Shown here: piece by piece, positions 3,435 to 28,205 of the stretch
How positions within the stretch are numbered: position 1 is the stretch's first letter
Layout of the letters: the number at the start of each line of letters is the position of its first letter
Made by a program: the position numbers and the translations under genes
Source: Enterobacteria phage ATK47
Reading direction: 5' to 3' (one strand)
Sequence record: NC_055708.1
Length of the DNA: 64,000 nucleotides
Notes under the pieces: model-generated
Seen by the model: only the letters and a program-made list of their open reading frames with translations
Told to the model about the DNA's origin: nothing
Databases searched by the model: none

Positions 3435-3509
3435 GGCCCTGTAGCTCAATGGGAGAGCTGTCAGCTCATAACTGATAGGTAGCTGGATCGAAACCAGCCA
3501 GGGTCACCA
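3435..3509 (+). tRNA. tRNA with CAU anticodon (Met or lysidine-modified Ile), includes encoded CCA
   Basis: Hand-folded cloverleaf: acceptor ggccctg/cagggtc, D stem gctc/gagc, anticodon stem gtcag/ctgat, loop CTCATAA, T stem gctgg/ccagc. Confidence 0.75.
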
Positions 3510-3512
3510 ATT

Positions 3513-3589
<77 letters not shown>

Positions 3590-17155: not shown

Positions 17156-17499
17156 CCAAAATGTTAGCTTTAATAGTTGGCTTGGTTTCATTTAACGCTC
17201 TTGCTAATACTACATATACTGATGTAACGGAGTATACAAACAGAACGGCGTCTGATTATTGTGGTAAAAGTCAAGAGTGTAAAGTAGATTTTTCACAAAA
17301 ATTGTTATATGCGTATAAAGACGGAGAAAAAGATGGGGCGTCTAGTAGGTTCAAGGCGTCTACCTTAATTAAAAGATACTATAAAAAATGGCAAATATTA
17401 GAATGCTCGGTGGCGGAACCTAAAGATAAGGCAGCATGCAATTCTATGGTGGACCGCCTAGTTGACTCTTATACTAGAGGACTTGCAGCAAGTGATTAA
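17152..17499 (+). CDS. secreted protein with signal peptide
   Basis: N-terminal MTKMLALIVGLVSFNALA. Confidence 0.45.
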   Translation: MTKMLALIVGLVSFNALANTTYTDVTEYTNRTASDYCGKSQECKVDFSQKLLYAYKDGEKDGASSRFKASTLIKRYYKKWQILECSVAEPKDKAACNSMVDRLVDSYTRGLAASD

Positions 17500-17959
17500 A
17501 AACTATATCAAGGGCGATATTGTCGCCCTGTTTTCTAAAGGTAATAATATTGCTCATGGGTGTAATTGTTTTCATACAATGGGCGCCGGTGTGGCAGGAC
17601 AATTAGCAAAGGCTTATCCAAAAATTCTGGAAGCCGATAAACTTCAAACCGAATTCGGAGACGAGTCTAAACTCGGGACTTATTCGGTTTATGAAAAATA
17701 TTTTAAGACCCATAAAGCTTATTGCTTTAATCTTTATACGCAGTTTGAGCCGGGACCTAATTTTGAGTACTCTGCTTTAATGAATTGTATAATAGAATTA
17801 AATGAATTTGGAAAGAATAAGATAACAAAGCCTGTAATTTATATGCCAAGAATTGGTGCAGGTATTGGTGGTGGAAACTGGGATGTCATCGAAGAGATTT
17901 TAGATACGTATTCCACTAAACTAGAAATTGTGATTGTTGATTGGGAACCGTTATTATGA
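17483..17959 (+). CDS. macro-domain protein (ADP-ribose binding/hydrolase fold)
   Basis: NIAHGCNCFHTMGAGVAGQL and RIGAGIGGGNWDVI resemble macro-domain glycine-rich loops; start approximate (non-ATG). Confidence 0.55.
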   Translation: MQQVIKNYIKGDIVALFSKGNNIAHGCNCFHTMGAGVAGQLAKAYPKILEADKLQTEFGDESKLGTYSVYEKYFKTHKAYCFNLYTQFEPGPNFEYSALMNCIIELNEFGKNKITKPVIYMPRIGAGIGGGNWDVIEEILDTYSTKLEIVIVDWEPLL

Positions 17960-21257: not shown

Positions 21258-21731
21258 ATGATTATCAATGAAAACTCTTGGCACTTTAAAATTTATGCCG
21301 CGTTCAATAGTACATGGAATCGTCCGAAAACGTTGTGTGCTTATTTTTGGAAAACGTTAATCCCGGTATTGGCTGTTTCAATTATTGGATTTGCGATTTT
21401 AGCAGCAGTCACAATCATTGGCCAGGAAATTTTAACTAAATTCTTTGTTTTTAGCAGTCTATGGACATTAGTTCCAGCCTCAATTGGTGTAGGCATTTTA
21501 ATTGTAGCAGTCATGGCTTTTATTGCTACCGGGTTAGTAATTGGTCCGTCTTGGTTGTTAGACAAATATAACGACAGAAAATATTATAAAGAAATTGAGC
21601 TCATTGCGCAAAACCAAGAACGAATTAAAAATGGACTTGAGCCTATTGAACGTAAGAAATCATTAATAGGTGAATACCTTAAAGCTCGTAAAGAAAAAGT
21701 CTGTCCTACTCTTGAATATAAGGCTAAATGA
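21258..21731 (+). CDS. membrane protein
   Basis: multiple hydrophobic segments. Confidence 0.5.
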   Translation: MIINENSWHFKIYAAFNSTWNRPKTLCAYFWKTLIPVLAVSIIGFAILAAVTIIGQEILTKFFVFSSLWTLVPASIGVGILIVAVMAFIATGLVIGPSWLLDKYNDRKYYKEIELIAQNQERIKNGLEPIERKKSLIGEYLKARKEKVCPTLEYKAK

Positions 21732-22717
21732 TGAAAACAATTATGAAAGGCTACTTTGGTAGCCACCTTTATGGAACGTCTACTCCTGAATCTGACGTCG
21801 ATTTTAAAGAAATTTATGTCCCTCATGCTCGTGATATTTTGACCGGTAACGTTAAAGAACATATGAGCAAGAACACGAATAACACATCTTCTAAGAACAC
21901 AAAAGACGACGTAGACCATGAGTTGTATAGTCTAAAATATTTCTTTAAACTAGCTGCGGATGGTGAAACCGTCGCATTAGATATGCTTCATACTCCACCA
22001 AGTCTAGTAGTTAAATCTGATTTGCCTGATGTATGGAAGTATATTCAAGATAACAGGTCTCGTTTCTATACCACTAACATGAAATCTTATTTAGGGTACG
22101 TCCGTAAGCAAGCTTCTAAATACGGTGTCAAGGGTTCTCGACTGGCTGTTCTTCGTCAAGCCCTTAAACGTTCTAATGAATGGGGACAATACTTTGATAA
22201 TGGTGCAGTAATTCGTTTATCACATATGAAGAATGTTCTACCTGTAGGTGAATTTGCTTCATGGGTTGAAACCGAAAACGAGAAAACAGGTAAGCAAACA
22301 TTCTATAGTCTGTTAGACCGTAAATTCCAAGACACGTTAACCAATAAAGAGTTCAATGCTATCCTGGTTAAACTGGAAGAGAACTATGGTGAACGTGCTC
22401 GTAAAGCAGAAGCTAACGAAGGTATTGACTGGAAAGCATTGAGTCATGCATGTCGTGGTGGACTTCAATTATTGGAAATTTACAAAACCGGCGACCTGGT
22501 TTACCCACTTCAGGATGCTCCATTTATTCTCGATGTTAAGCTTGGTAAACATACGTTTAAAACTGTACAAGAATTCCTAGAAGATATCGTTGACCAAGTT
22601 GAACATGCGTCAGAACAAGCTGCCAAGAATGGTATGCAACAAAAAGTAGATACGAGTTTCTGGGATGATTTCCTTGAGCAAGTCTATCTCGAAAATCATA
22701 ATTCTTACTATAAATAA
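21728..22717 (+). CDS. Pol-beta-superfamily nucleotidyltransferase-fold protein
   Basis: GS-x12-DVD motif (GYFGSHLYGTSTPESDVDF). Confidence 0.5.
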   Translation: MMKTIMKGYFGSHLYGTSTPESDVDFKEIYVPHARDILTGNVKEHMSKNTNNTSSKNTKDDVDHELYSLKYFFKLAADGETVALDMLHTPPSLVVKSDLPDVWKYIQDNRSRFYTTNMKSYLGYVRKQASKYGVKGSRLAVLRQALKRSNEWGQYFDNGAVIRLSHMKNVLPVGEFASWVETENEKTGKQTFYSLLDRKFQDTLTNKEFNAILVKLEENYGERARKAEANEGIDWKALSHACRGGLQLLEIYKTGDLVYPLQDAPFILDVKLGKHTFKTVQEFLEDIVDQVEHASEQAAKNGMQQKVDTSFWDDFLEQVYLENHNSYYK

Positions 22718-22748
22718 GTAGATAAATAACCCTTAACTTGAGGTAAAT

Positions 22749-23009
22749 ATGAAAAAATTAGCAATTGGTTTATTCGCAGTAATGATGGCATTCTCTGTTG
22801 GTGCTACCACAGGAGCTGGTGGTAACCAGTCTTCTGGGCCTTCCAACGGTTCGGTAAATGCATCACATTCTCAGGGTATTGAGAATATCAAATCGAGCTA
22901 TATTAATAGCACTGCCGGACAAGCAACTGAAGCATGGTCAAAGGGTCGAGTAGTTACACGCTCCGTATTCTGTGATATGCCTAATTATGTTGCTAAGTGC
23001 GATAAGTAA
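22749..23009 (+). CDS. secreted small protein
   Basis: signal peptide MKKLAIGLFAVMMAFSVGA. Confidence 0.45.
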   Translation: MKKLAIGLFAVMMAFSVGATTGAGGNQSSGPSNGSVNASHSQGIENIKSSYINSTAGQATEAWSKGRVVTRSVFCDMPNYVAKCDK

Positions 23010-23012
23010 ATG

Positions 23013-23034
23013 TGGGGACCTTCGGGTCCCTTTA
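23013..23034 (+). terminator. rho-independent terminator (gggacc ttcg ggtccc TTT)
   Basis: UUCG tetraloop hairpin. Confidence 0.55.
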
Positions 23035-23060
23035 GGGGGTCAAAATATTTTTAAAAAGTA

Positions 23061-23098
23061 GTGTACATGCTTTTAGGATATGATACTATAGACCTATC
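23061..23098 (+). promoter_or_regulatory. early promoter
   Basis: GTGTACA, TACTAT, aggata...tagacctat. Confidence 0.45.
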
Positions 23099-23127
23099 GA
23101 AACGAAATGAGTAAATTGGAGAATAAA

Positions 23128-24108
23128 ATGTTCAACGTTCAAATCAAAAAAGGTATCTATCGTAATAACGAAATCTCTGGTTCTTATGTTGCCACAAAGA
23201 CATGGTTCCCGGCAAAGCTTAATCCTGAATGTTCCCACTTAGGTGATGGTAAAATTTTCGTTATGATTGATGGTTCTGAACGTGGAGTATGGGTCTTCAA
23301 ATCAGACATCGTAATGGAAGGAGTTGAGACGTCACCAGTTGCAGTTGTTGAAAGCACTGAAGATATGAAAACTCGTATCAACAAACGCTTTAAAGTAATG
23401 AACATGATGACGAATGGCATTATTGATGGCAAAATTCGTTCACTCATTATTTCAGGTGCAGCTGGTATTGGTAAGACGTATTCTCTGGATAAAGCACTTA
23501 ATAATGCTAATGATAATGGTTTCATCAAATACAAAAGCATTAATGGTAAAATCTCCGGTATTGGCCTTTACGAACAACTTTGGCTCAACCGTGATGAAGA
23601 CAGCGTTCTCTTAATCGATGACGTTGACGTATTCTCAGATATGGACATCCTGAACCTTCTTAAAGCAGCATTAGATACCGGAGATAAACGCAAAGTTTGT
23701 TGGAGCACTGCGTCATCTTATCTCGAGGATAAGGGTATTGATAAAGAATTTGAGTTTGAAGGTACTATCGTTTTCATTACAAACGTTGATATCGATAAAG
23801 AGTTAGAACGGGGTTCGAAACTTGCTCCACACCTTCAAGCTTTAGTATCTCGTTCAGTGTATCTCGACCTTGGAGTACACTCTAATGAAGAGATTATGGT
23901 TCGAGTTGAAGATGTAATATTATCTACTGATATGATGCAGAAACGTGGCTTGACTGATGCTGAAACGTATAAAGCATTGTCCTGGATGAAGGCTAATGTA
24001 TCTCGTCTTCGCAATGTATCATTACGTACGGCTCTTTATGTAGCAGATTTTATTTCAACCGATAAAGATGGTTGGGAGGAAATCTCCGAAGTAACTTTAC
24101 TGAAATAA
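23128..24108 (+). CDS. AAA/P-loop ATPase
   Basis: Walker A GAAGIGKT, Walker B VLLIDDVD. Confidence 0.6.
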   Translation: MFNVQIKKGIYRNNEISGSYVATKTWFPAKLNPECSHLGDGKIFVMIDGSERGVWVFKSDIVMEGVETSPVAVVESTEDMKTRINKRFKVMNMMTNGIIDGKIRSLIISGAAGIGKTYSLDKALNNANDNGFIKYKSINGKISGIGLYEQLWLNRDEDSVLLIDDVDVFSDMDILNLLKAALDTGDKRKVCWSTASSYLEDKGIDKEFEFEGTIVFITNVDIDKELERGSKLAPHLQALVSRSVYLDLGVHSNEEIMVRVEDVILSTDMMQKRGLTDAETYKALSWMKANVSRLRNVSLRTALYVADFISTDKDGWEEISEVTLLK

Positions 24109-25181: not shown

Positions 25182-26177
25182 ATGAGCATTACATCTGATG
25201 CGATAAAACATGAAATTAACGGTTTATGTGCTTCACAGATTAAAGTGTGGTTTAAAGACCATAATGATCGCAGAGCGCTTAATTATGAACGAATTGCTAT
25301 CCAAGTTCATCAATTACTGGTTAGTAAATTTGATTTTCATATGCCGTCTGAAATCTATACTAATCTACCGCGAGCGCTTATTAAAGCGTGTAAAGGCTAC
25401 GGAAAATCAATGGCTGACGGAATCTTCAGCGCGCTGAATAAACTTAACGTTCTGTCGATGATTAACTCTAACAATATCCTGCGTAATCTAGGACGTACTG
25501 ATTTGTTCGGTCGTGAACAGTGTAAAATGCCTTTGAAACGGATTGTTGCTCATCTTAACGAGAACCAAACACGTTTTATGGCCGTAACAGCACGTTTACA
25601 AATGGGCCTAGATCGTCAGATGAACTTTAAAACTCATCCACGTTATTCAGGTTCAACAGACTTTTATAAATGTGAGCTTCAAAAGGTTGGTGGTAAAACT
25701 GTCTTAGTAGTTCGTGTAACGTTTGAAGGACGACGTCAAGGATATTTTGACATAATCGGCTCTGGTCTTAAACATTGTGGATTTATCGACGAAGTTGATA
25801 TCAAGCGAGACGGCATTGGATACCGTATTGGGTATGTTTGTACTCTTAAAGAAGAGATTTCAGGACCAGCTCCAGGACTAAAAGACGTTAGATATAAAGA
25901 CGAGCTCGTTGAAGAAATAAAAGAAGTTGAATATGATATCAACCAAGAAGATGCTCTTAAAGACCTTATTGATGAACTGAACCAAGATGTTATTCCTGTT
26001 CAGAAATTTGAATCAAAACATGCTGAGCAAATCAAATACTTTGAAGCTTTGATTAACGAACTTAATGTAACTATTCAACAGACTGACGATGAAATCTCAC
26101 GATTAGCAGGCTTAAACGGTAAAAATAAAACAGAACGAGCTAATCTTATTCAAGTAGTAAAACTTCTTAAGGAATGA
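25182..26177 (+). CDS. hypothetical protein with C-terminal coiled coil
   Basis: 331 aa ORF; first of three similar-sized tandem genes. Confidence 0.5.
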   Translation: MSITSDAIKHEINGLCASQIKVWFKDHNDRRALNYERIAIQVHQLLVSKFDFHMPSEIYTNLPRALIKACKGYGKSMADGIFSALNKLNVLSMINSNNILRNLGRTDLFGREQCKMPLKRIVAHLNENQTRFMAVTARLQMGLDRQMNFKTHPRYSGSTDFYKCELQKVGGKTVLVVRVTFEGRRQGYFDIIGSGLKHCGFIDEVDIKRDGIGYRIGYVCTLKEEISGPAPGLKDVRYKDELVEEIKEVEYDINQEDALKDLIDELNQDVIPVQKFESKHAEQIKYFEALINELNVTIQQTDDEISRLAGLNGKNKTERANLIQVVKLLKE

Positions 26178-26208
26178 TGTACAACCAAGGATGGTTGGAG
26201 TATAATAA
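26176..26208 (+). promoter_or_regulatory. promoter cassette AACCAAGGATGGTTGGAGTATAAT
   Basis: near-identical element at 27196-27228. Confidence 0.45.
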
Positions 26209-26232
26209 ATTTTTCAACATGAGGAATATAAA

Positions 26233-27192
26233 ATGGCTTTTATTACACGTAGAGAACTTATCAAAGAATTTACCTCGAACGCATATACTCCAGGACCTAA
26301 TCCTATCCGTATGCCTGTAAAGACTCCTGAAGAGATTGAGGAAATCTGTTCATATTATGGGATTACTTCTCGTATGTTTACCCAATTTGAATGCGTTACT
26401 AACACACCCGTTAAAGAGTTCATTAAAAATGGTGAGTTCAGCCGTTTATTGGCCAAACAGAAACTTCGTAATTTTTGTATTGGCGGTGAAGGTCAATATT
26501 TCGCTAAGCAGTTCCGGAATAACCTTAACAATCTGATGGCCATTGCTTCTCGTATTCGTCCTCAAGCAATTAACATGAAACATTTGAAATATACTTACGA
26601 TAAGTTAGAAATCATGGTTATCAGTGAGAACGAGTTCACTCTTACGTATAAACCTAAGAATGATAACGTTGCTCGTGTATTCCACCAAGCGTTGGAAGTT
26701 TTAGGTGATAATATCCACCAGATTAAAGCAATTTATTCTCGTGAGCTTAATATTATCGACCCTATCAAGAATAAGGGCCATATCGCTATCCAGGCTCGTG
26801 TATCTATTGGTAAAAAGGTTCCTGCACCATGGTGGCACAAAGACTCTGAATATTATCAAAATCTTAAAAAGGAAAATGCAACATTTGAAGCGTCAATTAC
26901 TGCAACCCCAATTGGTAATGCTGAAGTTCTAGGTTCATATTCTACTTCGGGTAAATCAATGTTTAAAGGTTTGCCAAATGTGTGCAAACTGTCTGCAGTA
27001 AAACTAAATGTTTCTAATGACCTTCTTCCGGTCGAAGATTACCATTACAATCAAATCAAGGCCACTATGGACCAACTGTCTGTTGAACTTGACAAAGCAC
27101 AAGCTAAGCTTCGTGATGCTCAAAGTGTTGTAACGAATCTCCAGTTGCAGTACTCTAAACTTTTTAACGCAATGAATGCATTAAAATCATAA
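26233..27192 (+). CDS. hypothetical protein with C-terminal coiled coil
   Basis: 319 aa ORF. Confidence 0.5.
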   Translation: MAFITRRELIKEFTSNAYTPGPNPIRMPVKTPEEIEEICSYYGITSRMFTQFECVTNTPVKEFIKNGEFSRLLAKQKLRNFCIGGEGQYFAKQFRNNLNNLMAIASRIRPQAINMKHLKYTYDKLEIMVISENEFTLTYKPKNDNVARVFHQALEVLGDNIHQIKAIYSRELNIIDPIKNKGHIAIQARVSIGKKVPAPWWHKDSEYYQNLKKENATFEASITATPIGNAEVLGSYSTSGKSMFKGLPNVCKLSAVKLNVSNDLLPVEDYHYNQIKATMDQLSVELDKAQAKLRDAQSVVTNLQLQYSKLFNAMNALKS

Positions 27193-27195
27193 AAC

Positions 27196-27228
27196 GGTTT
27201 ACAACCAAGGACGGTTGGAGTATAATGA
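27196..27228 (+). promoter_or_regulatory. promoter cassette GTTTACAACCAAGGACGGTTGGAGTATAAT
   Basis: second copy of 26176 element. Confidence 0.45.
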
Positions 27229-27254
27229 ATCTATCTTAACGAGAGGAAAATATT

Positions 27255-28205
27255 ATGACACGTTCACATTACATTGAATACTTTGCCGGGCTTATCGCTA
27301 ACGTTCATGCTCAGCGCGCTACTGGTGCACTAGGATTTGATGTTCCACACCGAGATGTAGTAAGTGGTATTCTTCGCGATTTTGGTACATACACAGGCCA
27401 AGAAAATCATATCTGTAAAGATACTCAAAATGCATATTCTCATTCATTAGGGACGCTGCTTCAATGGTTCAAACGTTCTCGTTTATTATCTTCTACTGTA
27501 GCTCGCGATAACATTAAAAACTTTATGAAGCCGAGCTTTATTAAATCTGTGACATCTAAAACCGATTTGGTTGAATTCACTATTGTTAATGATGTTAAAA
27601 AGACTCATTTGGCTGATTGGTTATCTACCATTCCTGAAACTAAATTTGCTGATAAATTTGCTTGTGAATTCAATAACCAAGTGAATATGCTTTTTAAACA
27701 TTCTCGTAAATTATTCACGGGCGGTGATGGTCGTACAAATAAAGTTCATGTTAAAGATTGGGTTACTGCAGTATTCAAACCGACCGGTAATGGTAACGCA
27801 TCATTATCAATTGATATCCAGGTTCCTTATTACTACTCACGTAATCTCGGTACCATGAAAGCCGAAGAAATTAATAAGCACAACAAAACCGTTCGTTCAT
27901 TGTCTTATAAACTTATTACATTGTTAGAGACTATGGATGTTGTTGAAACGTTCGACGAATCCGAAGATAACGGTTCAATGTTATACAGTTCTCGTACCAG
28001 AATTAAGCTGAAGAACCCTAACGAGTATAAACTTAAGACTATTAAAGAACCTAAAGTAGAAAAAGTTGACAACTTGAGCGAAGAACGTGAATACCTCAAA
28101 TCTCGTCTGAAAGAAGTCGAAGCCCAGATTAAAGAACAAACTAAATCGTTAAAAGCTCTTAATGCGAAAGCGGATGGTTTACGAAATGCCATTGAGGTTT
28201 TATAA
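27255..28205 (+). CDS. hypothetical protein with C-terminal coiled coil
   Basis: 316 aa ORF. Confidence 0.5.
   Translation: MTRSHYIEYFAGLIANVHAQRATGALGFDVPHRDVVSGILRDFGTYTGQENHICKDTQNAYSHSLGTLLQWFKRSRLLSSTVARDNIKNFMKPSFIKSVTSKTDLVEFTIVNDVKKTHLADWLSTIPETKFADKFACEFNNQVNMLFKHSRKLFTGGDGRTNKVHVKDWVTAVFKPTGNGNASLSIDIQVPYYYSRNLGTMKAEEINKHNKTVRSLSYKLITLLETMDVVETFDESEDNGSMLYSSRTRIKLKNPNEYKLKTIKEPKVEKVDNLSEEREYLKSRLKEVEAQIKEQTKSLKALNAKADGLRNAIEVL

Follow-up and report, generated by a model that had tools for sequence, protein, structure and literature searches.

RNA repair was first discovered in bacteriophage T4, whose Pnkp and Rnl1 enzymes reverse the tRNA cleavage caused by PrrC. RloC-type nucleases have been proposed to defeat this repair by excising the wobble nucleotide as well, and a phage-encoded RlaP, a nucleotidyltransferase (NTase) of a family reportedly named by Burroughs and Aravind in 2016, is an obvious candidate for the next move in this arms race. 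Here we analyze two genes of Enterobacteria phage ATK47, orthologs of T4 nrdC.11 and nrdC.10, which encode an NTase of this family and an AAA+ ATPase, respectively. Both are located in a region of approximately 3 kb (positions 21258-24108) of a 64,000-nt stretch of phage DNA (NC_055708.1); this whole stretch is referred to below as the window.

Two RlaP enzymes from Pseudomonas, PfRlaP and PaRlaP, add one or two nucleoside monophosphates to the 3'-OH ends of RNA, use Mn2+, and are inactive on DNA and protein (December 2025 preprint, PMC12776372). Given a tRNA mimic, PfRlaP acts preferentially on the 5' half of a cut anticodon loop rather than on that mimic's 3' end; RlaP can use any nucleoside triphosphate to label full-length tRNAs as well as the 3' ends of single-stranded RNA, and it can partly restore aminoacylation to tRNA from which a nucleotide is missing (PMC12776372). 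A role in tRNA repair directed against RloC-type excision has already been proposed for the family (PMC7824862; PMC12776372). In the network of PF10127 proteins, T4 NrdC.11 belongs to cluster 5 and the studied Pseudomonas enzymes to cluster 1a (PMC12776372). Comparative genomics had earlier reported a COG3541 nucleotidyltransferase domain for nrdC.11 and a weak AAA ATPase match for nrdC.10 (PMC1524935), and RefSeq already annotates the NrdC.11 gene as 'nucleotidyltransferase'. Both domain assignments have thus been known since 2006, and T4 NrdC.11 has been known as an RlaP since 2025; no functional study of nrdC.10 or nrdC.11 was found in the literature. The initial annotation of the window, made from the sequence alone, had left the function of the pair as unknown, which holds for experiments on the phage proteins but not for their families. 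The additions made here are modest: a tandem pattern of long and short forms in cellular genomes, the lack of support for a coupling between NTase and ATPase, and a corrected start of the ATPase.

The 329-amino acid (aa) NTase of the window is the same enzyme as NrdC.11, its ortholog in T4; among the Pol-beta nucleotidyltransferases of the RlaP family, it represents a divergent long form. It shares 78% identity with T4 NrdC.11 (NP_049709) over the full length, and its match to the Pfam family RlaP (PF10127), at 49.2 bits (cut-off 23) and E 7e-13, covers residues 7-161 and profile positions 23-148 of 249. The family phrog_388, labeled 'nucleotidyltransferase', is matched with E 1e-125. An exhaustive HMMER search with the NTase yielded 3204 representative clusters (E <= 1e-3), 746 of which reached E <= 1e-30; most were full-length proteins of approximately 310-350 aa, and PF10127 was matched by 60 out of 61 diverse members of the clade. 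The catalytic motif consists of G11-S12, ten further residues, and D23-V-D25, with a second DVD at positions 61-63; the minimal NTase signature and the length of 329 aa given in the initial annotation were therefore correct, except that the spacing is GS-x10-DVD and not GS-x12-DVD. Invariant in 61 relatives of 35-57% identity are G11, S12, G16, S22, D23, D25, N57, D63, Y132, K236, R243, and G273. As G11, S12, D23, D25, and D63 are among these residues, the GS...DVD motif is not a chance match, and the minimal Pol-beta nucleotidyltransferase domain recognized previously is borne out.

For comparison with the canonical, short RlaP, a profile was constructed from ten sequences encoded by genes adjoining relatives of the window NTase. 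The NTase was aligned to it by hhalign with a probability of 95% and E 3e-8, over residues 1-91 only, a stretch in which GS, D23/D25, and D63 of the NTase fall on the canonical motifs GS, SDYD, and LDinGWD. Since these motifs line up, the two proteins have the catalytic core in common. The AlphaFold2 (AF2) model, with a predicted local distance difference test score (pLDDT) of 93.3, begins with a Pol-beta core; the C-terminal domain that follows is helical, carries a three-stranded beta insertion at approximately residues 177-201, and ends in a long helix.

Sequence searches of the Protein Data Bank (PDB), by single sequence and by profile, produced nothing below E 0.02 for either the NTase or the ATPase, the PDB copy searched apparently being without PfRlaP. 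Among solved structures, the best matches of the NTase were KNTase/ANT(4'), Hailong HalB, and MNT antitoxins. The PADLOC scan of the NTase gave no model at E <= 0.1, the NCBIfam scan only a sub-threshold match to MntA (12.9 bits, cut-off 60), and no HEPN toxin gene adjoins the NTase gene, its neighbors coding for a membrane protein and a secreted protein. CCA-adding and poly(A) polymerase families were not matched by the NTase in Pfam, nor were class I or II CCA-adding enzymes by fold, and no CD-NTase/cGAS-like similarity was found by hidden Markov model (HMM) or by fold. The initial annotation had pointed to the CD-NTase, MNT, and CCA-adding families for HMM and structure searches; RlaP was the only family passed at a curated threshold.

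Gene contexts of the relatives support an RNA-repair role for the long-form clade. A scan of the genomes of 185,579 bacterial and archaeal species yielded 80 loci (L085-L164) with a full-length NTase relative, 34-52% identical to the window protein. A canonical short RlaP is present in 24 of the 79 loci in which the long NTase was re-detected by the HMM, and it lies directly downstream of the long NTase, on the same strand, in 17-22 of the 72 evaluable loci (e.g., L112:3712-10277, L099:6001-7699, and L138:6004-7777). The window NTase belongs to the clade that supplies the 'long' member of the tandem RlaP pairs encoded in RNA-repair operons of cellular genomes. In Nitrosospira (L112), RtcB, RtcA, the long NTase, canonical RlaP, Hen1, and an AAA_5 ATPase are encoded on one strand; neighbors of the long NTase in other cellular loci include RtcA and Pnkp-ligase domains. 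On the phage side, 80 NTase loci were sampled for context, and the neighbors were surveyed in 29 divergent phage loci, where two RNA ligases (one of them in L075), a PNKP phosphatase domain, a cREC domain, and two SPFH/Band-7 proteins are encoded near the NTase. The RNA-repair context, one of those suggested in the initial annotation for the pair, is upheld for the NTase by the Pfam match to RlaP, by the RtcB/RtcA/Hen1 operons of its relatives, and by the activity of the Pseudomonas enzymes (PMC12776372).

Two features of the cellular loci may be mentioned separately. Two paralogous NTases within one repair operon may have separate roles. In Desulfatiglandales (L099:1497-5052, minus strand), adjacent genes for a classic AAA ATPase (PF00004) and an S8 subtilase are located on the opposite strand directly upstream of the NTase-RlaP pair and probably constitute an unrelated two-gene system.

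The second protein shares 78% identity with T4 NrdC.10 (NP_049708) and, according to its sequence and structural model, is an AAA+ ATPase with intact catalytic motifs and no assignable clade. The initial annotation had described it as a Walker A/B ATPase of 333 aa; the enzyme class stands, now as AAA+, while the start codon most likely has to be moved to 23128, giving a predicted product of 326 aa, because orthologs are mostly 321-335 aa and commonly 326 aa long, a GGAG Shine-Dalgarno sequence is conserved before the ATG at 23128, and an in-frame ATG farther upstream is lacking in T4. The Walker A motif is GAAGIGKT and the Walker B motif VLLIDD. In 35 diverse homologs, Walker A is invariant and is accompanied by the DD of Walker B, N219 of sensor 1, an SRS motif, and R295/R300 in the lid; the SRS motif resembles the SRC arginine finger of clamp loaders. 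In the AF2 model (pLDDT 87.7), a beta domain of approximately 65 residues at the N-terminus is followed by a linker helix, by the AAA+ core, in which an insertion precedes sensor 1, and by a helical lid. The protein thus combines Walker A and B, sensor 1, an arginine finger, sensor 2, and an alpha/beta core with a lid, all of them characters by which AAA+ proteins are recognized. Each Pfam AAA model scored below its cut-off, MoxR ATPases were among the best structural matches, the PADLOC scan returned only a weak match to SspF (E 0.022), and the matching family phrog_1250 has no assigned function. A word-based search found 387 relatives, the named ones nearly all being from T4-like (Straboviridae) phages.

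The spacer of 118 bp preceding the ATPase contains, in this order, a UUCG hairpin with a T run, the elements GTGTACA and TACTAT separated by 16 nt, the GGAG, and the ATG. At the same place T4 has GGGAGCCTTCGGGCTCCC followed by TTTTTT, a textbook terminator, and GTTTACA-17 nt-TACTAT as the counterpart of the promoter; the layout of hairpin and promoter can be aligned across five phages (the window, T4, and three others). An overlapping terminator-like site (23025-23041) was called by the terminator scan. The candidate promoter is proposed from its conservation: by hand count it has eight out of 12 matches to the scan consensus, which is below the generic scan threshold, and it is absent from the scan list. 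A middle promoter with a MotA box upstream of the ATPase was also considered and rejected, as the TGCTT pattern with a spacing of 12-15 nt was not matched and the early-type -35/-10 elements fit better. Given the hairpin and the conserved promoter between the two genes, the ATPase gene is predicted to have a promoter of its own, and its expression would be early.

The explanation that we prefer, with moderate confidence, is that these are separately transcribed accessory genes, NrdC.11 being an RlaP-type enzyme that adds nucleotides to RNA ends and NrdC.10 an AAA+ ATPase probably not tied to it functionally. The two T4-like genes would be neighbors since the whole early region from tk to nrdC has been inherited as a block. 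The most likely function of the NTase would be untemplated nucleotide addition to RNA 3' ends in phage tRNA repair. D23, D25, and D63, together with two divalent metal ions, would extend a broken RNA at its 3'-OH by one or two untemplated nucleotides. We infer that the substrate is RNA and the opponent an RloC-type enzyme; the probable substrate would be a tRNA anticodon loop from which a nucleotide has been removed by an RloC-type anticodon nuclease of the host. A functional tRNA could then be resealed by two further phage enzymes whose genes lie elsewhere, polynucleotide kinase and RNA ligase 1; both are encoded away from this region in a 98%-identical Mosigvirus sister genome.

Several observations weigh against this explanation. 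T4 without nrdC.11-mobD.3 is viable on laboratory hosts (PMC9825161), and nrdC.11 is therefore dispensable there. Only approximately 90 N-terminal residues of the NTase align with canonical RlaP, the Pfam match ends at residue 161, and, with a divergent C-terminal half, presumed to bind the acceptor, the acceptor could differ from that of canonical RlaP. The neighbors of the NTase in the 29 divergent phage loci are mostly unrelated genes, and no tRNA gene occurs there within 600 bp of it, the closest being a tRNA-Ser gene approximately 670 bp upstream in L060 and the remaining ones lying more than 6 kb away. In the window, no RNA ligase or kinase gene was found near the NTase. Finally, T4-like phages of enterobacteria and Acinetobacter have kept the NTase and ATPase adjacent, and four of 160 NTase loci contain a MoxR-like AAA_5 ATPase that is unrelated to NrdC.10; both facts are compatible with a functional link between NTase and ATPase.

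Other functions of the NTase have to be weighed against nucleotide addition in tRNA repair. It could act on a substrate that is not RNA or not part of repair, by AMPylation of a host protein or toxin (MNT-like), by nucleotidylation of a small molecule (KNTase/ANT-like), or by making or capping short oligonucleotides (HalB-like). We regard this as unlikely, since RlaP is the only family passed at a curated threshold, MntA falls far short of its cut-off and no HEPN gene accompanies the NTase, and the cellular contexts are RNA-repair operons; some weight remains with this possibility owing to the C-terminal half, which is unalignable with canonical RlaP, and to the counter-defense genes of the nrdC.x region, including T4 NrdC.5, which lets T4 overcome the Dsr1 defense system (PMC9391042). 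Restoration of the CCA ends of tRNAs, which would counter the trimming or blocking of the acceptor end by host toxins, would agree with the ability of RlaP to label, using any nucleoside triphosphate, full-length tRNAs as well as the 3' ends of single-stranded RNA (PMC12776372) and with the name 'tRNA nucleotidyltransferase' given, in annotation only, to a distant homolog in Ruegeria phage RpAliso (26.5% identity). It is improbable, however, considering the preference of PfRlaP for the cut anticodon loop's 5' half (PMC12776372), the absence of CCA-adding and poly(A) polymerase families from the Pfam matches, and contexts with ligases, RtcA, and Hen1, which act on internal breaks. As for a second-messenger synthase or an enzyme interfering with such messengers (CD-NTase-like, CBASS-type), the generic Pol-beta fold and general precedent are what can be cited in its favor; with a PADLOC scan empty at E <= 0.1 and a dedicated anti-CBASS nuclease, Acb1, already encoded by the phage (738-1193), this function is scarcely credible.

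A different alternative concerns the ATPase: the NTase and the AAA+ ATPase, presented in the initial annotation as a combination known from defense and counter-defense systems, could form a two-gene phage module in which the ATPase unfolds or presents damaged tRNA or ribosome-bound RNA, or a counter-defense device. The ATPase was found within 10 kb of the NTase in 30 of the 80 phage loci. It lies 0.1 to 2.3 kb downstream (1.1 to 3.3 kb from start to start) in 28 of the 34 loci with at least 60% NTase identity, compared with two of the 46 below 60%, and two Acinetobacter phage loci belong to those in which the pair is linked. The distance varies because different genes have been inserted, here that of the secreted protein, and between the two genes lie a terminator-like hairpin and a promoter, both of them conserved. 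The NTase is kept and the ATPase lost in near relatives (L011, L014, L020, L021, L031, and L053). Record counts by host genus are discordant, with 295 NTases vs. 149 ATPases in Klebsiella phages and 59 vs. 121 in Vibrio phages, and distant ATPase homologs in KVP40-like, Xanthomonas, and jumbo phages stand alone, adjoining genes for ribonucleotide reductase and topoisomerase, primase, or denV, with no NTase. An NrdC.10-like protein was found in none of the 80 bacterial and archaeal NTase loci. All 30 loci with the pair keep tk and/or nrdC in the fetched flanks (tk in 28 of them); as tk and/or nrdC are syntenic wherever the pair adjoins, inheritance of the tk/nrdC block accounts for the linkage. 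The MoxR-like AAA_5 ATPases in or near four of the 160 long-NTase loci, including the L112 RNA-repair operon and phage locus L070, also speak for a module, as does an hhalign match of NrdC.10 to the AAA_5 family at E 3e-4; the probability of that match is, however, 41-54%, limited to the generic AAA+ core, and falls to 0.2% against the single L070 protein. Altogether, a two-gene module has a small probability, and the NTase and the ATPase are probably neighbors by inherited gene order and not one system, so that the combination proposed initially is not sustained and the ATPase next to an NTase of this type should not be assumed to be part of its system.

The AAA_5 proteins near long NTases represent a family of approximately 350 aa with 26-67% identity among its members, two of which are in phage loci (L070:8557-9660 and L083:1577-2584) and two in bacterial ones (L112:9201-10277 and L154:8730-9779). 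Four jackhmmer iterations collected only four members in the 160 loci and never reached NrdC.10. The L070 ATPase was examined as a possible relative of NrdC.10 and set aside (hhalign probability 0.2% when its sequence was used alone and 41% with a profile of the family), being kept as a weak lead. By analogy with the operons combining the long NTase, RlaP, Hen1, and AAA_5, NrdC.10 could be a phage-specific AAA+ partner of NrdC.11 in a tRNA-repair module, which we consider doubtful. If it were true, T4-like phages would possess a defined countermeasure against anticodon nucleases that excise nucleotides, RloC among them.

The features of the region are listed in the table below. The three open reading frames (ORFs) for the NTase, the small secreted protein, and the ATPase were found on the plus strand at the positions assigned to them in the initial annotation, and all three genes are conserved. 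With tblastn matches in 1566 phage records for the NTase and 1310 for the ATPase, these two genes are not chance ORFs.

Features of the 21258-24108 region of the Enterobacteria phage ATK47 window
Feature	Coordinates	Strand	Basis
Gene for a membrane protein of 157 aa, two helices predicted	21258..21731	+	ORF; phrog_944 'membrane protein', E 3e-53
Predicted Pol-beta-fold nucleotidyltransferase, 329 aa, T4 NrdC.11 ortholog, long-form RlaP (PF10127)	21728..22717	+	ORF, Pfam, phrog_388
Small predicted secreted protein, 86 aa	22749..23009	+	ORF; phrog_2243, E 2e-37
GC-rich hairpin with a UUCG tetraloop, then a short T run; terminator-like	23014..23031	+	Predicted fold, -12.9 kcal/mol
Predicted sigma-70-like promoter of the T4 early type, before the ATPase gene	23061..23089	+	Sequence reading and conservation
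Predicted AAA+ ATPase, 326 aa, T4 NrdC.10 ortholog	23128..24108 (ORF opens at 23107)	+	ORF, comparison of starts

The membrane protein has hydrophobic segments at approximately residues 33-56 and 67-98. The stop codon of its gene overlaps the start codon of the NTase (ATGA), and in most Tevenvirinae loci this gene lies upstream of the NTase, being a more consistent neighbor than the ATPase downstream. The N-terminus of the 86-aa protein, with a basic beginning (KK), a hydrophobic stretch ending in VGA, and a mean Kyte-Doolittle hydropathy of 2.2 for residues 4-19, is compatible with a signal peptide, as the initial annotation had assumed, and two cysteines are located near the C-terminus. Its gene, a lineage-specific insertion separating NTase and ATPase, was found in only two of the 80 NTase loci and is absent from T4.

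The window belongs to a T4-like Mosigvirus. At the DNA level, the 3-kb region has 100% identity with Enterobacteria phage ATK48, and several Mosigvirus genomes reach 98%. On the plus strand, the order of genes is that of the T4 early region: tk, rI, mobD.1/y05I, nrdC.x genes, and nrdC; elsewhere in the window other typical T4-like genes are present, namely Acb1/57B, tRNAs, regB, nrdD/G, the gene 43 polymerase, and primase. Two adjoining phage tRNA genes, for tRNA-Met (CAT) and tRNA-Arg (TCT), occupy positions 3435-3589. The anti-CBASS nuclease Acb1 mentioned above consists of 151 aa (PF23474, E 1e-58); its ortholog in RefSeq record NC_041863 carries the misleading label 'RNA ligase'. The ortholog of T4 Tk.4 (17462-17959) is a macro-domain protein (Pfam Macro, E 2e-6), which could be an ADP-ribose-processing enzyme with a counter-defense role. 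Beyond the ATPase, three successive proteins of approximately 320 aa are encoded at 25182-28205: the first (25182-26177) is similar to T4 NrdC.6 (29% identity), the second (26233-27192, DUF7235) to T4 NrdC.5 (26%), and the third (27255-28205) to T4 NrdC.3 (56%). The nrdC.x block looks like a counter-defense island. Many phage records annotate orthologs of the NTase, the ATPase, and their neighbors as 'thioredoxin', apparently because the names nrdC.10 and nrdC.11 were read as NrdC; replacing these labels derived from nrdC.x names, and so obtaining a cleaner annotation, is the practical value of the present analysis.

Comparison with known systems places both proteins closest to their T4 counterparts. 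The ATPase shares 10-16% identity with the MoxR (NorQ, CbbQ), NtrC, MCM, DnaA/ORC/Cdc6, and RFC groups of AAA+ proteins, none of which stands out, and differs from all of them by its unique N-terminal beta domain of approximately 65 residues. With KNTase/ANT(4'), Hailong HalB, and MNT antitoxins, which are minimal Pol-beta NTases with or without a helical domain, the NTase has the minimal NTase core in common. With Pseudomonas RlaP, it shares the Pfam family, the GS motif and the three catalytic aspartates, and, in its model, the order of an NTase domain followed by a helical domain, the AF2 layout agreeing with the published description of the PfRlaP structure (PMC12776372) in general layout only, as the C-terminal half is not alignable; it differs in being approximately 60 residues longer, in a C-terminal half that hhalign did not align and that contains the beta insertion at approximately 177-201, in belonging to cluster 5 rather than 1a, and in lacking flanking rtcB and rtcA. 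The long NTases of the tandem pairs with canonical RlaP are 34-42% identical to the window protein over residues 2-316 to 2-329, whereas the phage has the long form only, no canonical RlaP having been found in the 80 phage loci, the 64-kb window, or the fetched parts of a sister genome. T4 NrdC.11 is alike over its full length, in its place between the tk/rI block and nrdC.10, and in the terminator-like hairpin downstream; the window differs by the membrane-protein gene in place of the homing endonuclease gene mobD, which in T4 is directly upstream of nrdC.11, and by the additional gene for the 86-aa secreted protein downstream. The ATPase, finally, shows no notable difference from T4 NrdC.10, with which it shares, besides the 78% identity, its position, the upstream promoter, and the Shine-Dalgarno sequence.

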